Made by a program: the position numbers and the translations under genes. A stretch of DNA of 64,000 nt from Candidatus Sungiibacteriota bacterium (GTDB lineage: Bacteria; Patescibacteriota; Minisyncoccia; Sungbacterales; HO2-52-23), in assembly GCA_016432465.1 (NCBI GenBank), contig CP066690.1, positions 683,666-747,665 of the forward strand. The letters run 5' to 3'. This document shows, piece by piece, positions 410 through 63,254 of the stretch. The notes under the pieces were generated by a model. It made no database searches, was not told where the DNA came from, and worked only from the letters and a program-made list of their open reading frames with translations. How positions within the stretch are numbered: the first letter of the stretch is position 1; the number at the start of each line of letters is the position of its first letter.

Positions 410-417
410 GAGGTGGC

Positions 418-480
418 GGGGTGAAGTAGAACGCTATCCTGATAAGATAGAGGTCCCAGGTTCGATCCCTGGCACACCCA
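418..480 (+). pseudogene. degenerate tRNA-Ile(GAT) copy. The anticodon arm, T-arm and acceptor 3' strand (CACACCCA) are intact, but the D-arm is deleted and the 5' acceptor is imperfect
   Basis: CTATC-CTGATAA-GATAG, CCAGG-TTCGATC-CCTGG and CACACCCA are present. The 5' side reads GGGGTGAAG rather than GGGTGTG. Confidence 0.4.
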
Positions 481-4435: not shown

Positions 4436-5689
4436 GTGAACCTTGATAGCTATAATCAGGAAGAAACACGCAAAGAGTACTCTGACCCCAGAGATGATGT
4501 CGGCCGCTACCTAGATGAAATCGGACTAATACCGATGCTCAAGGGTCGGGAAGCAGAAAAGGAGTTGAGTGAGGAGATCGAAAAAGCCAGGCGCAGTATT
4601 TGGCGGCTGATTCGGCATATTCCCCTTATTACCGAAACAAAAAATAACGTAGGGGTTTCAACGGGTGACCTGCCGCGTCTTGTAAAGAAGTTACATCGGC
4701 GTCTCCAAAAGATGGAACGGCTGGTAGAAGAAAGCGCCTCTTTGTCTCCGGGCCAAAAACGCAGCGCTTTAAGGCGCGAGAAACAACGTCTCGAAAAAGA
4801 AGTCGGCATCTCTCATCGGAAGTTAAGAAGTATCTTTAAAAAAATTAATGCCTTTGAAGCTCAAGCCCTTTCGGCGAGGAACAGGTTGGTAGAGGCCAAC
4901 TTGCGGTTGGTGGTTTCTATTGCGCGTGGGTATAGGTCTCCCGGGCTTACTTTGGGTGACTTGATTCAAGAAGGCAACACCGGTCTTATGAGGGCTGCAG
5001 CCAAATTTGATGCCTCTATGGGGTTTAAATTTTCAACCTATGCCACGCCTTGGATAGAACAAGGCATCAGAAGGGGCATTGAAAATCAGGGACGGTTAAT
5101 CCGTCTTCCGGCTTACGTACAGAGCAACTTTACGCATTTACGGAAGCTTCAGCGTTCTTTGCTGGGTAAGTACGGACGCCTACCAGATGAAGAAAAGCTT
5201 CGTGCTTTTGTCCGGGCCTCCGATCGTGGGGTTAAAGACCGAAGTTTATCCGGTCTTATTCCTTCCTTCTTTATACACGAAAACAGTCTCTTATCGCTTG
5301 ATCGTGAGTTGGGGAAAGAGGGAGAAGAAAGAGTCACTAAGTTGTCTGATTTGTTTGAGGACGAATCGATCGCCTCTCCCGAAGATCAGGTTGCAGCCAA
5401 AGAATTTACGGCGAAAATGTTAACGCGGCTTGAAGGACGCGATGGTTTTTATGAACGTATGGCCGAAGTCATACGTTTGCGTTTTGGGGTTGATGGTGTG
5501 GAGCGTCCTCACACTCTTGATGAAGTTGGCAAGATTTTGGGTGTTTCCCGGGAGCGGGTAAGACAGATCGAGGAGAGGACGCTTCGTAAACTTAGCATAT
5601 ATGCCAAACAGCTTATGAGGATAAATCTTAGGCCGGCACAAAGTGGTGTAAACGGAAAAGTCTTTGGGTCCACAGCCCATAGAAATTAA
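4436..5689 (+). CDS. rpoD: RNA polymerase sigma factor, sigma-70 family (primary sigma, RpoD-like), GTG start
   Basis: Regions 1.2, 2.1-2.4 (DLIQEGNTGLMRAAAKFD, FSTYATPWI), 3 and 4.2 (TLDEVGKILGVSRERVRQIE). RBS AAGGAGGA at 4420-4427. Confidence 0.9.
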   Translation: MNLDSYNQEETRKEYSDPRDDVGRYLDEIGLIPMLKGREAEKELSEEIEKARRSIWRLIRHIPLITETKNNVGVSTGDLPRLVKKLHRRLQKMERLVEESASLSPGQKRSALRREKQRLEKEVGISHRKLRSIFKKINAFEAQALSARNRLVEANLRLVVSIARGYRSPGLTLGDLIQEGNTGLMRAAAKFDASMGFKFSTYATPWIEQGIRRGIENQGRLIRLPAYVQSNFTHLRKLQRSLLGKYGRLPDEEKLRAFVRASDRGVKDRSLSGLIPSFFIHENSLLSLDRELGKEGEERVTKLSDLFEDESIASPEDQVAAKEFTAKMLTRLEGRDGFYERMAEVIRLRFGVDGVERPHTLDEVGKILGVSRERVRQIEERTLRKLSIYAKQLMRINLRPAQSGVNGKVFGSTAHRN

Positions 5690-8921: not shown

Positions 8922-9070
8922 ATATAGTCCCGGGATGCAGCGATGCATCCTTTTATGTTAGGAAGCTCTAAGCAGTAGAGTCGTGCAAGAGTTATTGCGC
9001 GTCGCTCTTGGCCTCGGATGGAATTGCGCAATTTCGCGACGAAAAGTATTTTGAGACGGGCTCTAGAGTT

Positions 9071-9099
9071 TTGAACGCTTATAGGTAAACAGGTATAAT
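9071..9099 (+). promoter_or_regulatory. sigma70-like promoter (TTGAAC-17-TATAAT). The -10 element ends 6 nt before the ATG, so the mRNA is probably leaderless
   Basis: TTGAAC at 9071-9076, TATAAT at 9094-9099, ATG at 9106. Confidence 0.5.
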
Positions 9100-9105
9100 G
9101 AAGTC

Positions 9106-10248
9106 ATGGCTTTCTTAGGGCTGTCCCATACAACAAAAACACCCGCAAGGGCAGTTATTGATGTTGGTTCGGACAGCATAAAAGCGGTTATTTTTGCGGC
9201 TGGCAGTGGGGAAAAACCACCCCAGATTTTTAAAAAGATGGTTGCTAAGCTTCCGGTTGCGGTCAGTCAGGAAAGGACTATTACCAAATTGCGGGAGTTT
9301 TTGTTTGTAATGGTAAAGGAGCTTGGCAGGGTTCCTCAAAAGATTACAGTGGCCCTTGGGCCGCAGATAGCAGAACACAGGCTTCTTACTTGGAGCGTTC
9401 GCCCTGCAGAAAAAGGCCCGCTCTCACGCGAAATGCTTCGTCGTTATTTCCAAAATCTTATAGAGCAAAATCGTGAGGGCACGCGTCATTTCACAGCGCA
9501 CCCGGTAGCGCTTTTTGACAATGGTTATAAGGTGGACCCTTCGGATTTAGAATCAGCTAGTATCTACGATTTATGGTTTCGCACGCTTCTTCTTTATTTT
9601 CCCGGCGAGGTAGGTAGGGTGCTTGCTGATGCAAAAAAAATTCTGGGCGGCATGCCGATTGAGTTTATTCCCGCAGTTTTGGCCTACGAATATGCTATCG
9701 TACGGTCTTTAAATGTTGCCGAGGCCTTAACAGTGGTTGTGGATGGCGAGGAAACAACAATTCTGTACATTCAAGACGGTACAATCGTTGGTGTAGCAGT
9801 ATTCCCCATGGGCGCACGACACTTTTTGCGAAAAATATCCCAAGTGACCAACAGTTCTTTTTTGGAGGCAGAAGATGTTAAAAGACAGTATGCCAGCAGG
9901 ATGCTGGATGCGGGACGAAGTCAAAAACTTCAGGAACATCTGGGCGAGGAAGTTTCCCTGTGGAGGAAAATGTTTCTGGACGAGCTGGATGGTTTTTACC
10001 ACTTAGGTCCTATACCCGAACAGATTTTTCTGACGGGCAAGGGCGCATTGCTTCCGGAACTTCAGGCGGTTTTGAGAGATGCGGAGTGGATAAAGCAGTT
10101 TTCGTACAGCGTCTCACCCCGTGTTAAAATTTTTGAGGCGCAAGGTCTTTTTCAGGGAAACACCATGAATGGACTCTTACGGGGTGTTGAGGAATCGGGT
10201 TTGGCTTCACTTATTATATACTCTCTACACCATGAACCAATTTTTTAA
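9106..10248 (+). CDS. actin-like ATPase of the PilM/FtsA family
   Basis: N-terminal VIDVGSDSIKAV phosphate-1 motif. The size and second nucleotide-binding region fit PilM/FtsA. Confidence 0.55.
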   Translation: MAFLGLSHTTKTPARAVIDVGSDSIKAVIFAAGSGEKPPQIFKKMVAKLPVAVSQERTITKLREFLFVMVKELGRVPQKITVALGPQIAEHRLLTWSVRPAEKGPLSREMLRRYFQNLIEQNREGTRHFTAHPVALFDNGYKVDPSDLESASIYDLWFRTLLLYFPGEVGRVLADAKKILGGMPIEFIPAVLAYEYAIVRSLNVAEALTVVVDGEETTILYIQDGTIVGVAVFPMGARHFLRKISQVTNSSFLEAEDVKRQYASRMLDAGRSQKLQEHLGEEVSLWRKMFLDELDGFYHLGPIPEQIFLTGKGALLPELQAVLRDAEWIKQFSYSVSPRVKIFEAQGLFQGNTMNGLLRGVEESGLASLIIYSLHHEPIF

Positions 10249-11644
10249 CAAAGACCGGAAAATTACGGACGGCATAAGAAGGCGGATGGTGCATTCAGCC
10301 GGGTATCCCAAAAAAGAAATTTCGGTTTCGGCCGCACCAAAACCCCAAGCCGAAGAAATAAAGGTAAAAAGTAAAGAAGCTTTTGCAGGGACGGCCGAAG
10401 AGAACGGCATCGTTATTACAGAGCCGGCCGGAGGAGAGGAGGTAATCAGCGGCGACTACGATTATACGCCGGTTGCTGGTCGCAGGGCCGTTTCTTCGCG
10501 TTTACTTTGGCTGGGGCTTGGCGCCGGATTTTTAGCAGTTTTGGCAGGAGTTATTCTTCTCACAACCGTTTTTGCGCGCCTGACAGTTACGATAAACCCC
10601 CGTTTGGACCAGATCACTGTTGCGGATACAGTAATGGCTTTAGATACTTCTCTTTCTCGTCCCCTTATGCAGCAAAGGGTTGTGCCGGCGCAGTTTCTTG
10701 AGTTTTCCAGAAAAGAAACAGAAGAGTTTGAGGCAACAGGGAAAGAGTTTATAGAAGAACGGGCGCGGGGCAAGGTAAAAATTTATAATCGTTTCAGCTC
10801 TTCCCCGCAGACACTGGTAGCCTCAACCCGGTTTATGACCGACTCCGGTATTTTATTTCGTCTCGCTCGGAACATTGTGATTCCGGGTGCAAAAATAGAA
10901 GAAGGTAAAATAATACCAGAATCAATTGAGGCTGAGTTGATTGCGGATAAAGCCGGCGATGACTCCAATACCCCCTCCGAAGTCGTACTCAAAATTCCCG
11001 GCTTTAAGGGTACGGCCAAATACGACGGTTTTTACGCGTCAGCCCCTTCCGGATTTTCGGGAGGTTTTCGCGGAGAAGCGCGGGTGGTTTCGCAGGACGA
11101 TTTAAGGCTTGCCCAAGAAGCGGTTACCAAAAATCTGCATGAAGGATTACGCCAAGAAATAGCCCGCAAAATCCCGCCGGATTTTAAACTGATTGAAGGA
11201 CTTCGTGAAATCCAGATTACCAATTTAGATTCTCCGCGTCCCAAAACCCGGCGTGACCGTTTCTCCATAGAAGCAGAAGCAAGGGGGAGGGTTTTGGTGT
11301 TTCGTGAAAAAGACGTTGCCGCCGTTATTAAAGAACGATTTAAGCAGGAAGACGCGGGCCGTCTACCAATAGAAGAATCTGAAGAGTTGAACTATCAAGT
11401 TAGGGTAACCGACTTTGTTAAAAAAAGAGGTGAACTTATAGTGCGCGGAAGTTTTAAGGCAGTACCGATTATCCAACAGCAGGAACTGGCCGCTCTGATT
11501 AAAAGTAAAAAAGAGGGGTCCATCTTGGAAATCCTGAAAGGTAGAAAAGAGGTTGCGGATTTTGCAGTATCCTTCTTTCCACCGTGGCTTTTTAAGGCCC
11601 CGGGCGATACTGATAAAATTAAAGTGATTATAAAAGAACCATAA
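10232..11644 (+). CDS. bitopic membrane protein with a large extracytoplasmic domain. It may be the partner of the upstream PilM/FtsA-like ATPase
   Basis: Single TM segment (LLWLGLGAGFLAVLAGVILLTTVF). Its start overlaps the stop of the preceding gene. Confidence 0.45.
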   Translation: MNQFFNKDRKITDGIRRRMVHSAGYPKKEISVSAAPKPQAEEIKVKSKEAFAGTAEENGIVITEPAGGEEVISGDYDYTPVAGRRAVSSRLLWLGLGAGFLAVLAGVILLTTVFARLTVTINPRLDQITVADTVMALDTSLSRPLMQQRVVPAQFLEFSRKETEEFEATGKEFIEERARGKVKIYNRFSSSPQTLVASTRFMTDSGILFRLARNIVIPGAKIEEGKIIPESIEAELIADKAGDDSNTPSEVVLKIPGFKGTAKYDGFYASAPSGFSGGFRGEARVVSQDDLRLAQEAVTKNLHEGLRQEIARKIPPDFKLIEGLREIQITNLDSPRPKTRRDRFSIEAEARGRVLVFREKDVAAVIKERFKQEDAGRLPIEESEELNYQVRVTDFVKKRGELIVRGSFKAVPIIQQQELAALIKSKKEGSILEILKGRKEVADFAVSFFPPWLFKAPGDTDKIKVIIKEP

Positions 11645-11763
11645 GTTGTTCTATTGACTTTTAAAATAAATTATGCTATGATTAGAATAATTAGTCCCTA
11701 ACCCGGTCGATTTTTGGTGGGGGGGCTAAAGCTAACTATTAAGTAAAAATAAATAAAAACAAA

Positions 11764-13881: not shown

Positions 13882-14265
13882 ATGAATGAGAAAATCAGGG
13901 ATTTTAAGGATCTATACGCTTGGCAAGAGGCGCATAAACTTGTTGTCATGGTTTACAAAATAACGGAAAAGTTCCCGAAATCCGAGGTGTTTGGTTTGAC
14001 AAATCAAATGCGGAGGTCGGCTATTTCAGTAACTTCTAATATCGCCGAGGGGTTTGGAAGGCAAGGTTACAAAGAAAAAGTTCAGTTTTATTATCTTGCG
14101 CAGGGATCTCTTATTGAACTGAAAAACCAGCTTATCGCTGCGAAGGATGTAGGTTATTTGACTGACAAAGATTTTGCAGGACTGGTAGAACAGGCAAACC
14201 TTGCTCATAAAATACTACAGGGATTGATTACTAAATCTAAACACCTCTTAAACCATGATTCCTGA
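13882..14265 (+). CDS. four-helix-bundle protein of the 23S rRNA intervening-sequence protein family (TIGR02436-like)
   Basis: Conserved blocks YAWQEAHKL, RRSAISVTSNIAEGFGR and LAQGSLIEL. It is flanked by roughly 23-bp imperfect inverted repeats. Confidence 0.8.
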   Translation: MNEKIRDFKDLYAWQEAHKLVVMVYKITEKFPKSEVFGLTNQMRRSAISVTSNIAEGFGRQGYKEKVQFYYLAQGSLIELKNQLIAAKDVGYLTDKDFAGLVEQANLAHKILQGLITKSKHLLNHDS

Positions 14266-17789: not shown

Positions 17790-17946
17790 TGCTGTTTTCA
17801 AAAACTGCCCACCTGGGCGTTTTTGATTATTGTTTCCTGGGGGTTTCTTACTTAATCTGCCTCTTCTGAACCAACCTTATTTGGAGATTAGCTCGGAAGA
17901 GGTGGGAGGGCGCATCCCGAAGGACGTACCCTCCTCCTTTTTTGGG

Positions 17947-18372
17947 TCAGCCGATGACCCCCTTCGTGTCAACCTTGCCGGCCTTGACCAGTATGGCAAG
18001 GATCTTCTTGGCGGTGAGCGGACGGTCCCCGCGCAGGTGAGCCAGCCGGAGTGCTCGGCCACCCGGCAAGATGATCGGATTTCCTTGGTTCTCGTACGGG
18101 TCATACCCGTCCGTAACCAAAGTATCGCGGTAGCCGCGAAGGCCATGCGCGGCAGCGGCCTTCCGGAACTTCTGCTCCTCTCTCACTGCCTCCGCGACGG
18201 AGAGCGGCTTTGAGAAGACTTTCTCGTAGCCGCAGAAGTGCAAGCGTCGGGTCCCGTAATCCCGGCCCGACCAACCGAGCGCGTTCACGCCTTCCTCCTT
18301 ACGATACCAGTCGGAAGGAGAGGAAGTTGGACGCGCGTGCTGGATAAAAAGTCCTTTCACCTTCACTTTCAT
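17947..18372 (-). CDS. hypothetical protein (141 aa) in a GC-rich (~60%) island. Resemblance to Arr-type ADP-ribosyltransferases is weak
   Basis: Strong RBS (AAGGAG 8 nt upstream of the ATG on the minus strand). The composition departs sharply from the flanks. Confidence 0.55.
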   Translation of the reverse strand: MKVKVKGLFIQHARPTSSPSDWYRKEEGVNALGWSGRDYGTRRLHFCGYEKVFSKPLSVAEAVREEQKFRKAAAAHGLRGYRDTLVTDGYDPYENQGNPIILPGGRALRLAHLRGDRPLTAKKILAILVKAGKVDTKGVIG

Positions 18373-18471
18373 CTTCCCGCTCCTTTCTCTCGGGCTTTCC
18401 CCGAGAATATAGTGATCTTCCCTATATCTACATTATACCACTATTTTGTTAAAAAGTCAATAATATTGAGT

Positions 18472-18500
18472 CATTGACCCGCACTGTCCTATTTGCTATG
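18472..18500 (+). promoter_or_regulatory. sigma70-like promoter (TTGACC-17-TATGAT) for infA. The inverted repeat GTCAAT..ATTGAC overlaps the -35 element
   Basis: Read directly from sequence. Confidence 0.45.
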
Positions 18501-18518
18501 ATTAAGAAGTAATTCTTT

Positions 18519-55795: not shown

Positions 55796-57742
55796 ATGTC
55801 CACTTTCCGCTTTTTTAAAAAAAATAGTCATGGAATACAACTTGATCCGGATGAGGTGCTGGCGGATTCGGCCAGCGCCTTACGGCCCTTTACCGTAACT
55901 GAAGGTAAAATGGAGCGTCCTATTGGCCGGGTTGCGGCTGTCTTTTTTTTACTGGTAGCTGTTGGCGGCATGCTTTATCTTTCCGGCCGCGCGTTGTCGC
56001 TCCAGATAAAATCAGGGTCATCTTTTTTCGCAAAATCCCAGGAAAACAGGTTTTTGGAGAGACCCATTTTACCGCCGCGCGGCGTACTTTATGATCGTTT
56101 CAAAGAGCCTCTGGTTGAAAATGTGCCCTTACTCGGACTTTTATTTGACCGAAGAATGTTTTTTAAGGAGAAAGGCGCGCTTTCGCTCTTGAGAGAACGT
56201 CTGCAGGAACGGTTGGGGTTTTCAAACGAGTTTTTGTTGTCTTTTGGATTTCCAGAGGAAGACGATCCGTCAAAACTACCGCCCAAAATAATTCTTTCGG
56301 ATGAGTTATCGCTTGAGAGATTGGTAAAGATCGCGCCCCATCTTGATGAATTGCCCGGAGTCCAGATCTTTGAGAGTTACCGTCGTGTCTACCAAGACCC
56401 CATGGCCAATGCTCATCTTTTGGGATTTGTCGGCAAGGTGTCGGAAGAAGACTTGGCGCGCGAGCCGCAGCTTGAACTGGAAGCAGTGGTTGGAAAAAGT
56501 GGCTTGGAGGCATTTTACGATTCAGAAGTTCGCGGCAGGAGCGGCAGGAAAATCGTGGAAGTTGACTCAAGCGGACGCGAAACCAGATTTCGTATGACGC
56601 AGGAGTCGGCTCCGGGATCAGGACTTATTCTTACGGTTGAAGGGGGCCTGCAAAAAATCGCCTATGAGGTATTAACGCGTTATATCGGAGGAAAGAAGGG
56701 GGCAAGCGTTATAGCGGTTGATCCCAGGGACGGTGCTGTGCGTGCGCTGCTAAGTTCCCCCTCTTTTAATATCACTAATTTTGGGCAAGCTCTTTCTCCA
56801 AAAGAATTTGAGGCGCGGCTGAAAGATCCGCTCAAGCCCTTTTTTAATCGTGCGATTTCGGGAGAGTTTCCTTCGGGATCAACCATAAAGCCGATTTTAG
56901 CCGCCGCTATACTTGAGGAGAGTTTGATTGATCCGGACAAAAAAATTTATACCGAGGGGTTTATTGAAATCCCTAATCCGTACAAACCGGGTGAAAAATC
57001 AGTTTTTTTGGACTGGAAGAATCATGGTTGGGTAAATTTTTATGATGCGATTGCCCAGTCAGTAAACGTTTATTTCTATACTTTGGGCGGCGGATACAAA
57101 GGGCAAAAGGGTCTCGGAATTGAAAAAATTAAAAAATATGCCCTTGCTTTTGGTTTTGGTTCAAAACTTGGTATTGATCTTCCGGGAGAAAGGACCGGTT
57201 TTTTACCTGACCCGGAAACTAAAAAAATCACCGAGCCCGATAACCCTGTCTGGCGGGTCGGCGATACTTACAATGTTTCCATTGGTCAGGGCGGGGTAAA
57301 AGTAACGCCGCTTCAGATGACTATGGCCACAGCCGCAATTGCCAACGGCGGCAAAATTTGGCAGCCGCATATTATGGACGCGGTGCTGGATGAGGGCGGC
57401 AACATTAAGGAGCGTTACCAGCCGCGTCTTATCCGGGAAAATTTTGTAAGCAAAGAAAATTTATCACGTGTTGTTCGGGGAATGCGTCAGACTGTGACTT
57501 CAGGCACGGCGCGTCTATTGGCTGGTCTTCCCGTGTCTGCGGCCGCCAAGACCGGTACGGCGCAGGCGGGGTCCGGCCTGCCCCACGCTTGGGTAACTGT
57601 GTTTGCGCCGGTGGAAAAGCCGGAGATTGCCATAACCGTGATGGTGGAGCACGCCGGAGAGGGAGCCACAGTGGCTGTGCCCATAACCCGCGATATTCTT
57701 CAGTGGTATTTCCAGAGCCGTAAGTTATCAACAGTTGACTAA
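55796..57742 (+). CDS. mrdA: penicillin-binding protein 2 (peptidoglycan D,D-transpeptidase)
   Basis: SxxK (STIKP), SxN and KTGTA motifs. N-terminal anchor. Confidence 0.85.
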   Translation: MSTFRFFKKNSHGIQLDPDEVLADSASALRPFTVTEGKMERPIGRVAAVFFLLVAVGGMLYLSGRALSLQIKSGSSFFAKSQENRFLERPILPPRGVLYDRFKEPLVENVPLLGLLFDRRMFFKEKGALSLLRERLQERLGFSNEFLLSFGFPEEDDPSKLPPKIILSDELSLERLVKIAPHLDELPGVQIFESYRRVYQDPMANAHLLGFVGKVSEEDLAREPQLELEAVVGKSGLEAFYDSEVRGRSGRKIVEVDSSGRETRFRMTQESAPGSGLILTVEGGLQKIAYEVLTRYIGGKKGASVIAVDPRDGAVRALLSSPSFNITNFGQALSPKEFEARLKDPLKPFFNRAISGEFPSGSTIKPILAAAILEESLIDPDKKIYTEGFIEIPNPYKPGEKSVFLDWKNHGWVNFYDAIAQSVNVYFYTLGGGYKGQKGLGIEKIKKYALAFGFGSKLGIDLPGERTGFLPDPETKKITEPDNPVWRVGDTYNVSIGQGGVKVTPLQMTMATAAIANGGKIWQPHIMDAVLDEGGNIKERYQPRLIRENFVSKENLSRVVRGMRQTVTSGTARLLAGLPVSAAAKTGTAQAGSGLPHAWVTVFAPVEKPEIAITVMVEHAGEGATVAVPITRDILQWYFQSRKLSTVD

Positions 57743-57776
57743 TTTTATTAATTTTAATAAAGTAGGTATCACTTTT

Positions 57777-61157: not shown

Positions 61158-62351
61158 ATGACAAGAGATGTAAGAACATGGATTGAGATAAATCAAAGAT
61201 CGCTCCACCACAATGTGGAGCAATTTTTGAAGTTGATCCCAAAGAAGACTTGTCTTATGGCGGTAGTAAAATCTAACGCTTATGGTCACGGTCTCGTACA
61301 AGTTGCAAAATCTTTGCTTGCCCTCCGTAGCTTTAGCGAAGGAGGGTGGTTCGGAGTGGATTCCATTGTTGAGGGTCTGCGGCTTCGCAAAGAAGGCGTT
61401 AAAAATCCAATTTTTGTTCTGGGCGCCACACTTCCCTCACGCCTTGAGGAAGCAGCCAAAGAAAACATAATCATTACTGTTTCCAATTTTGAGATTCTAA
61501 AAGAGTTAAACAGAATAAAAAAACCTCCGGTCTTTCACGTAAAAATGGACACCGGCATGCATCGTCAGGGCTTTTTATCTACTGATATTCCCAAGGTTTT
61601 AAAATTATTGAAATCGTATCGTTTAAGGCCTCAAGGTATTTACACCCATTTTGCCGCAGCCAAAGATGCTGCCTATCCAACTTATACGTTGGAACAACTT
61701 AAAAAGTTTAATAGAGTGGTTTCCGATTTTAGAAAGGCCGGATTTTCCGCCAAAGGCGGATCCCCGTCTTCGCCCGGCTACGGACGGGCAGGCGCCTCGG
61801 GCGGAAAGAATTTAATACGGCATGCCGCGGCCAGCGGCGGTGCTCTTCTTTTCCCGGAGGCACATTTAGATATGGTGCGGATCGGCATGGGTTTGTACGG
61901 CTATTGGCCGTCGCCAGAAGCACAAATTGCAAAGCGCAATGCGCCGATCACCCTAAGGCCGGTATTGACGTGGAAAACAGTTGTGAGCGAGACCAAGGAG
62001 ATACCGCGGGACTCGTTTGTGGGCTATGATCTTACAGAACGAGTACCTCAAGATACAAAAATTGCCGTCCTACCGGTTGGGTATTGGCACGGTTACGATA
62101 GAGGCCTTTCGGGCCTAAGTGATGTATTGGTACGCGGCAGGAGGGTTAGGGTGCTTGGTCGTGTCAGTATGGATATGATAGTGGTTGACGTGACAAAAGT
62201 TTCTAAAGTTAAGGCGGGCGACGAGGTTACGCTTGTTGGACGAAGCGGTAAAGAGGTAATCTGGGCGGACGAACTTGCACTTAAAATCGGCACAAGTCAG
62301 TATGAATTTTTAACTCGTATTAACCCCTTGATTAAAAGATTTATAGTATGA
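61158..62351 (+). CDS. alr: alanine racemase with a low-complexity Gly/Ser/Ala insertion
   Basis: PLP-Lys motif AVVKSNAYGHG and the C-terminal beta domain. Confidence 0.85.
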   Translation: MTRDVRTWIEINQRSLHHNVEQFLKLIPKKTCLMAVVKSNAYGHGLVQVAKSLLALRSFSEGGWFGVDSIVEGLRLRKEGVKNPIFVLGATLPSRLEEAAKENIIITVSNFEILKELNRIKKPPVFHVKMDTGMHRQGFLSTDIPKVLKLLKSYRLRPQGIYTHFAAAKDAAYPTYTLEQLKKFNRVVSDFRKAGFSAKGGSPSSPGYGRAGASGGKNLIRHAAASGGALLFPEAHLDMVRIGMGLYGYWPSPEAQIAKRNAPITLRPVLTWKTVVSETKEIPRDSFVGYDLTERVPQDTKIAVLPVGYWHGYDRGLSGLSDVLVRGRRVRVLGRVSMDMIVVDVTKVSKVKAGDEVTLVGRSGKEVIWADELALKIGTSQYEFLTRINPLIKRFIV

Positions 62352-63227: not shown

Positions 63228-63254
63228 GGGTTCCCATTGCTGGGAACCCTTTGG
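63228..63254 (+). terminator. rho-independent terminator after ftsQ
   Basis: GGGTTCCCA-ttgc-TGGGAACCC followed by TTTGG. Confidence 0.5.

Follow-up and report, generated by a model that had tools for sequence, protein, structure and literature searches.

A 64,000-nucleotide (nt) stretch of DNA from a Candidatus Sungiibacteriota bacterium (assembly GCA_016432465.1, contig CP066690.1, positions 683,666 to 747,665; called the window in what follows) was found to contain a GC-rich island with a single minus-strand gene, which encodes an orphan protein of 141 amino acids (aa) and lies between a liv-type transporter operon and infA. With a probability of roughly 70%, this gene forms a complete transcription unit of its own, foreign in composition, which was laterally acquired and has become fixed in one Sungiibacteriota lineage. 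Lateral transfer is suggested by two lines of sequence evidence, namely the composition of the gene and its absence in relatives. The name under which the protein is deposited at NCBI is hypothetical protein HYW89_03840, Candidatus Sungiibacteriota (metagenome-assembled genome, MAG). The predicted elements of the unit, in coordinates of the window, are as follows:

17947–18372, minus strand: coding sequence (CDS) of the orphan gene, ATG start, 141 codons, GC content at codon positions 1, 2 and 3 of 0.63, 0.46 and 0.73
18380–18384, minus strand: Shine-Dalgarno sequence AGGAG (GAAAGGAG with its extension), 7 nt 5' of the ATG, identified by reading the sequence
18388–18406, minus strand: stem-loop in the 5' untranslated region (UTR), TCTCGGG / CTTTC / CCCGAGA on the plus strand, present in both the minimum free energy and the centroid fold
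18432–18460, minus strand: sigma-70-type promoter of the orphan gene, TTGACT, 17-nt spacer, extended -10 TG-n-TATAAT, 11 of 12 consensus positions matched
17905–17934, minus strand: GC-rich hairpin 3' of the CDS, arms of 13 nt, UUCG tetraloop in the transcript, beginning 12 nt past the stop codon
17860–17902, minus strand: second 3' hairpin, 43 nt, with a CCTCTTC...GAAGAGG closing stem, at the low-coordinate edge of the GC-rich block
17799–17825, both strands: hairpin resembling an intrinsic terminator in both directions (TGCCCACCTGGGCG); a plus-strand T-run would serve livF, and GTTTTTG in the minus-strand sequence the orphan gene

The mean GC content of the window is 45.2%, while the interval 17835–18410, which the original prediction (made from the sequence alone) had marked as a foreign, GC-rich island in a lower-GC context, has a GC content of 58.3% and the open reading frame (ORF) within it one of 60.3%. 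When calculated over 400-nt windows (standard deviation, sd, 0.040), GC content peaks at 0.63 around position 17891. The GC-rich block proper, delimited by the points at which 60-nt steps cross 0.5, extends from ~17861 to ~18400 (~540 bases, ~60% GC), with 17835–17860 still being AT-rich. This level of GC is rare, being equalled at only one other place in the 64 kb, a non-coding region from 63225 to the window end. Compared with 60 host ORFs, the gene is set apart by its overall GC content (0.603 vs. 0.449 ± 0.028, z = +5.5), by its GC content at third codon positions (GC3; 0.725 vs. 0.433 ± 0.041, host maximum 0.50, z = +7.1) and by its synonymous codon log-likelihood, which at z = -3.8 falls under the minimum of the host genes. 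For Lys, Glu, Val and Leu, its codon preferences are the opposite of those of host genes, with an AAG:AAA ratio of 10:3 (host 0.30:0.70) and a GAG:GAA ratio of 6:1. Both the island and its foreign composition stand as predicted, with somewhat narrower edges. The gene is also among the very few on the minus strand, nearly all others in the window being co-oriented.

Intrinsic coding tests were used to assess the ORF because neither homologues nor polymorphism were available. Heterogeneity of GC content between codon positions in the frame of the ORF is pronounced (chi-squared, chi2, 21.7; p = 1.9e-5), which is near the top of the range seen in host-gene windows of the same length (median 9.3, maximum 22.9) and differs from the ORF-less second GC-rich island of the window (0.3 overall and 2.5 in its best sub-window). 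G occupies 37% of first codon positions. An ORF of at least 141 aa arises in 2.5% of dinucleotide-preserving shuffles of the island (probability 0.025). The protein-coding hallmarks found therefore include frame-specific codon bias, a ribosome-binding site and an ORF length beyond chance, and the single minus-strand gene with a strong ribosome-binding site that had been proposed at the outset was recovered, with its AGGAG 7 nt from the start codon. Because the periodicity falls in the frame of the ORF and is accompanied by a Shine-Dalgarno sequence, promoter, hairpins and terminator, the ORF is apparently a real monocistronic gene, as judged from sequence features.

The putative promoter of the orphan gene is placed in AT-rich, host-like DNA outside the GC-rich block, back to back with the divergent infA promoter at 18474–18502 (plus strand). 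Its -35 context, TATTGACTTTT, is common to the liv promoter (~11650–11684), and the liv, orphan-gene and infA promoters have the motifs TATTGACTTTT and TGCTATGATTA in common. On the 5' side of the gene, the arms of the stem-loop include CTCGGG at 18389–18394 and CCCGAG at 18400–18405; the structure ends 3 nt 5' of the GAAAGGAG Shine-Dalgarno stretch, which is left unsequestered, and probably serves as an mRNA-stabilising hairpin. The hairpin at 17905–17934 is the strongest of the island and is followed by no T-run. In the case of the terminator, the plus-strand site (17806–17819) was called by a program and the minus-strand T-run was read from the sequence. Two hairpins flanking the island had been described previously; both exist, although they had been placed 2–3 nt away from their true positions of 17860–17902 and 18389–18405, and the hairpin at 17905–17934, the promoter and the shared terminator had been overlooked.

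The neighbourhood of the island, as assigned with Pfam, consists of a liv-type ABC transporter upstream (BPD_transp_2, ABC_tran, Peripla_BP_6) and of infA (eIF-1a), rpsM, rpsK, rpsD and rpoA downstream. The distribution of the orphan gene was examined in 80 loci of other Parcubacteria and Sungbacteria genomes anchored on RpoA (best RpoA 71% identical), where tblastn returned no match to the protein at E <= 1e-3, and in 80 loci anchored on livF, where no match was better than E = 0.06; the gene is accordingly syntenic in no relative examined. A homologue of the 491-aa protein encoded at 10169–11644 was found directly upstream of infA in ten sister loci (L010, L012, L013, L016–L019, L021, L022 and L024), within ~150 nt of it in nine and separated from it by ~1.3 kb of unassigned sequence in L021. 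Since this homologue adjoins infA in the sisters, the liv operon and the island together are regarded as an insertion in this genome:

11645–18518: lineage-specific insertion of ~6.9 kb, comprising the liv-type operon, an inserted 23S_rRNA_IVP gene and, at the distal end, the orphan gene

The island had been described as lying between the liv operon and infA, and this position is correct, but these are not its ancestral neighbours, as the liv operon is itself part of the lineage-specific insertion. The liv genes have a host-like GC content (0.42–0.46) and close relatives in the candidate phyla radiation (CPR) on low-GC contigs, with LivF 67–78% identical (L087–L093). In none of these sister liv operons does the orphan gene lie downstream, so that its history appears to differ from that of the operon which it adjoins.

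The orphan protein has a predicted mass of 15.7 kDa and an isoelectric point of 10.0, with 26 Lys and Arg residues vs. 14 Asp and Glu residues. Inspection by eye revealed no hydrophobic stretch at the N-terminus, predictors of signal peptides or transmembrane segments not having been run. No significant match was found in Pfam, NCBIfam, PHROGs, PADLOC or the sequences of the PDB, no match was found in phage records, plasmid records or IMG/VR, and tblastn against 72,556 plasmids returned nothing at E <= 1. A search of 5.8 billion clusters retrieved the protein itself alone. An exhaustive HMMER scan of 1.84 billion representatives (2.4e11 residues) retrieved, in addition to the protein itself, eight tandem-repeat proteins (P0002–P0009) with E-values of 3e-8 to 6e-4, which are sums over 4–9 near-identical repeats. 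The best single repeat unit scores 33 bits with BLASTP and 13.2 bits with a hidden Markov model (HMM) of one repeat, and covers residues 14–39 (RPTSSPSDWYRKEEGVNALGWSGRDY) only. None of 5000 shuffled queries attains the score of this match. The repeat proteins have the unit ...PGTSPTSWYTTPENVQHIAYVGxD... and no consistent Pfam assignment; residues 14–39 of the orphan protein resemble one such unit and the remainder is unmatched. Membership of this TSPTSWYTTPENVQHIAYVG tandem-repeat family was rejected, as the orphan protein has one partial unit of ~26 residues where the family has several tandem copies of ~52 residues, and the match is not significant at the size of the library. The earlier statement that the product has no clear family is thus upheld across the family, structure and large protein libraries.

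It is proposed that a coding block of ~60% GC would have been imported from a GC-rich donor that has not been sampled, a phage or another mobile element being the most plausible. The import would have landed at the distal end of the liv operon, itself specific to the lineage, and would be expressed by way of host-like signals. Transcription from the sigma-70-type promoter (18460–18432, a consensus match) would yield a minus-strand mRNA of ~625 nt, in which the 5' stem-loop, the AGGAG ribosome-binding site and the 141-codon ORF would be followed by two GC-rich 3' hairpins and then by the terminator shared with livF. A poorly sampled pool of phages or mobile elements fits better than an ordinary GC-rich bacterium as the donor because no homologue was found at all.

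A number of observations weigh against this interpretation. No donor homologue was found among ~15 billion proteins, and the horizontal acquisition put forward in the original prediction, while favoured by foreign composition and absence in relatives, is for this reason not established. The nearest relatives are distant (RpoA at most 71% identical), which leaves the timing of the insertion loose. Nothing at the insertion itself would explain how it arose, as neither an integrase nor a tRNA is present there, nor are there direct repeats on its flanks or inverted repeats at its ends. The promoter, translation signals and terminator are consensus matches only. There is no polymorphism among the contigs aligned to the window, and an AlphaFold2 model calculated without an alignment was uninformative, with a confidence score (pLDDT) of 38.8. 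The transcript also folds better than its shuffles, leaving some room for a role at the RNA level.

In regard to mobility, flanking repeats or target-site duplications were sought around both the island and the whole liv-plus-island insertion, and the only sequences shared were 11-mers of the promoter consensus; inverted repeats flanking the island were limited to chance-level 12-mers. The features of classical genomic islands are thus lacking, with no integrase-like ORF, no tRNA or tmRNA target and no significant flanking repeats being found. The tRNAs called in the window, at 264–335 (by ARAGORN and Rfam) and 417–480 (by Rfam only), are both far from the island. Inspection by eye of 17799–17946 on the strand of the gene revealed no integron attC core sites (RYYYAAC/GTTRRRY).

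Other explanations were considered for the island as a whole. It may be asked whether the GC-rich sequence is an artefact, either an assembly chimera or contaminating DNA, as the GC content changes sharply at both edges. This is extremely unlikely, given that seven contigs assembled separately from different sequencing runs contain the gene. The six of these for which DNA was recovered are 100% identical to the window, and five of the six span both island junctions (one contig, L005, starts at 17817, just beyond the livF stop codon). The shared terminator and the divergent promoters also tie the island to its flanks. It is quite unlikely, too, that the island is a structured non-coding RNA gene containing the 141-codon ORF only by accident. 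A GC-rich island in an AT-richer genome frequently turns out to be an RNA gene, the second island of the window resembles one, and the hairpin loops GAAAG and UUCG would suit such a gene. The 571-nt unit 17860–18430 folds at z = -5.5 (sense) and -3.9 (antisense) relative to shuffles and the CDS alone at -3.1 and -4.7, respectively, beyond host-gene controls (mean -0.4, sd 1.1, minimum -2.3). However, the extra stability resides mostly in the UTR hairpins, and the sense value of the CDS is unexceptional among 36 GC-rich coding segments of other organisms (mean -0.95, sd 1.3, minimum -4.2; four of the 36 at or below -3). Rfam 15 gave no match at gathering score in the island and no credible family, the best hit in E-value mode (16.7 bits, E = 1.1) being at chance level. 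It is the combination of ordinary calibrated folding, the null result with Rfam and a three-base periodicity (p = 2e-5) exactly in the frame of an ORF with an ideally spaced Shine-Dalgarno sequence that speaks against an RNA-only role.

It is unlikely that the gene was born inside the lineage, whether it arose de novo or diverged to an extreme degree from some GC-rich locus already in this genome; in that event it would owe its GC richness to its birthplace, for example a former structured-RNA locus. Such an origin is in keeping with the host-type promoter, with the folding of the island beyond its shuffles and with the presence in the genome of another GC-rich minus-strand island (63225 onward), which is non-coding and has a TTGACA/TATACT promoter by eye. 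Had the gene recently been imported from an ordinary GC-rich bacterium, homologues would also have been expected, and none was found. However, the codon-position GC content of the orphan gene (0.63/0.46/0.73) and its bias for G at first positions resemble those of long-standing coding sequence from a genome of ~60% GC, whereas the second island has no such periodicity and no sequence similarity to the first, and the gene occurs in no relative examined. Two specific identities for the product were also weighed. A resemblance to Arr-type rifampin ADP-ribosyltransferases had been noted earlier on account of a loose H-x-G ... RGY ... DP pattern, and the sizes are similar (141 vs. 150 aa), but this resemblance appears to be due to chance and kinship with Arr is of negligible probability. 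BLASTP against Arr-3 (its sequence confirmed as 100% identical to annotated plasmid genes) gave 14 bits at best, with E = 0.82 for a single comparison; an HMM of three diverse Arr proteins scored -1.8 bits with all filters off; and no Arr model of Pfam or NCBIfam matched at E <= 10. The conserved blocks YHGTK, VYF(S/T), GAELA, VVEPTG and DPN are missing from the protein, which has size alone in common with Arr-2, Arr-3 and Arr-ms. The identity was rejected in the absence of a profile match, sequence similarity and conserved catalytic blocks. Descent of the ORF by decay from part of an IS66-family transposase, which would make it the remnant of an insertion sequence, is very unlikely. The sole sub-threshold family matches are to this family, in residues 70–114 (11 bits, E = 0.29 in Pfam; 12 bits, E = 0.078 in NCBIfam), and a motif of ~20 residues around TDGYDPY, LRGYRDTLVTDGYDPY, resembles the L-x-G-F-x-G-x-L-Q-x-D-x-Y-x-x-Y block at the second catalytic Asp. 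These scores are far under the cut-offs of 23.1 bits (Pfam PF03050) and 180 bits (NCBIfam NF033517), and an HMM from seven annotated IS66 transposases, gathered with a bait peptide, gave 0.2 bits over 21 residues with the downstream CWAH-RR motif unaligned. The five other reading frames of 17791–18480 match no family, and the plasmids searched with tblastn, empty of matches, hold thousands of IS66 copies. The transposase is ~510 aa long, no other block of it aligns, and neither tnpA/tnpB ORFs nor terminal inverted repeats accompany the island. An IS66 remnant was therefore rejected, the motif being a coincidence.

The orphan gene is of a known kind, that of ORFans or compositional islets, rather than a new kind of system. 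Deviant-composition orphan genes are commonplace, especially in CPR genomes, in which a large share of proteins have no family. With ORFans and single-gene genomic islets it shares a short, lone gene of deviant composition and codon usage, without homologues, absent in relatives and placed between conserved genes. It differs in being more GC-rich than its host, recently acquired genes and ORFans being more often AT-richer, and it has no mobility gene or attachment-site scar. A further comparison may be made with phage morons, which reportedly (Hendrix and colleagues) are autonomous units made up of a promoter, a gene and a terminator, deviate in composition and lie inserted between two genes. 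The orphan unit is alike in having, on the basis of consensus matches only, its own promoter, one ORF and hairpins plus a terminator (shared with livF), in its deviant GC content and in its position between two transcription units. However, it lies among chromosomal housekeeping genes (liv, infA and those for ribosomal proteins) and outside any prophage, with no phage genes nearby and no matches in PHROGs, phage records or IMG/VR.

The product is small, basic and fast-evolving, and its gene is organised in the manner of a phage moron. On these grounds it could be guessed to be a nucleic-acid-binding protein or one involved in inter-genome conflict, a guess with a rather low chance of being right. 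Small basic proteins that lack an obvious export signal and are encoded in such units most often bind nucleic acids or take part in conflict. A broader proposal, that it is the first member of a new protein family, specifically involved in conflict between phage and host or in life as an episymbiont, and is one case of a wider, so far undescribed capture of GC-rich, family-less genes into housekeeping regions of CPR/Parcubacteria genomes, is unlikely; under it, the small basic protein might act as an effector that binds DNA or RNA, as a toxin or as an anti-defence factor.

A scan for GC peaks in the CPR loci fetched for comparison identified other GC-rich genes among low-GC housekeeping genes, all of which are unrelated to the orphan gene. 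All show strong coding periodicity, with a GC3 of 0.67–0.82 in contigs of ~44% GC:

L076, 4948–5403, plus strand: 151 aa, GC3 0.82, next to a putative rpsI (adjacent ORF judged by reading its sequence)
L093, 1240–2679, plus strand: 479 aa, inside a liv operon
L055, 14591–15631, plus strand: 346 aa

None of the three has a significant Pfam family, with a sub-threshold TatC match in L093. GC-rich, family-less insertions appear to recur in CPR genomes. On its own the orphan gene is of little importance, but it is a clean and well-delimited case, with documentation of the insertion as well as of the empty site in relatives. It illustrates that GC-rich islands of this genome are not always RNA genes; the second island probably is one, and the contrast between the two is useful for annotation pipelines. 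The presence of unrelated GC-rich, family-less genes beside core genes in several Parcubacteria loci hints at a recurring source of foreign DNA, which might give a clue to the phages of these episymbionts or to their hosts.

Within the liv operon, a 127-aa gene at 13882–14265 (plus strand), between two liv permease genes, encodes a 23S_rRNA_IVP or bAvd-like four-helix-bundle protein (Pfam, 125 bits). It is missing at the corresponding place in the sister operons L087 and L088, a 43%-identical copy is found in L020 between rplQ and the next gene, and it has the appearance of a small mobile gene; the window ORFs scanned included no reverse transcriptase. In L088, which has the closest sister liv operon, the region directly 3' of livF (4700–5200) has a ~58% GC peak with a tRNA-Phe gene (4946–5021, minus strand) and ~300 nt more of GC-rich, ORF-poor sequence which has no Rfam match and is unrelated to the island.

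The second GC-rich island of the window extends from 63225 to ~64105, past the window end (~850 nt, ~62% GC), and is located downstream of an ftsQ-like gene; its full sequence is present in L175 (1905–2745). It is oriented on the minus strand; a terminator hairpin is located at 63229–63250, and a promoter-like sequence (TTGACA...TATACT) was recognised by eye just outside the island. None of its ORFs exceeds 97 aa, codon periodicity is absent (chi2 0.3), neither Pfam (in any frame) nor Rfam gave a match, and its folding z-score is -6.3. In sequence it bears no similarity to the island of the orphan gene. The short-read contigs of several samples all stop ~50–80 nt past this second island. This island is a candidate for a large non-coding RNA of no known family and may merit more attention than the orphan gene.

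With regard to the remainder of the window, the tRNA called by Rfam at 417–480 (plus strand), beside tRNA-Ile (264–335), is 64 nt long and scores 36 bits, barely over the gathering score. ARAGORN did not find it, and it may be atypical or truncated. Two regions of ~1.2 kb each (1175–2349 and 8922–10168) have no ORF of at least 100 aa in a greedy ORF map of this otherwise tightly packed genome. Milder GC peaks (0.565 and 0.585) occur inside host genes, namely at 61705–62184 in the alanine racemase gene (alr, 61158–62351) and at 57174–57751 in the 3' part of a PBP2-like gene. The peak in alr coincides with a low-complexity stretch rich in Gly, Ser and Ala (KGGSPSSPGYGRAGASGGK), which looks like an insertion.

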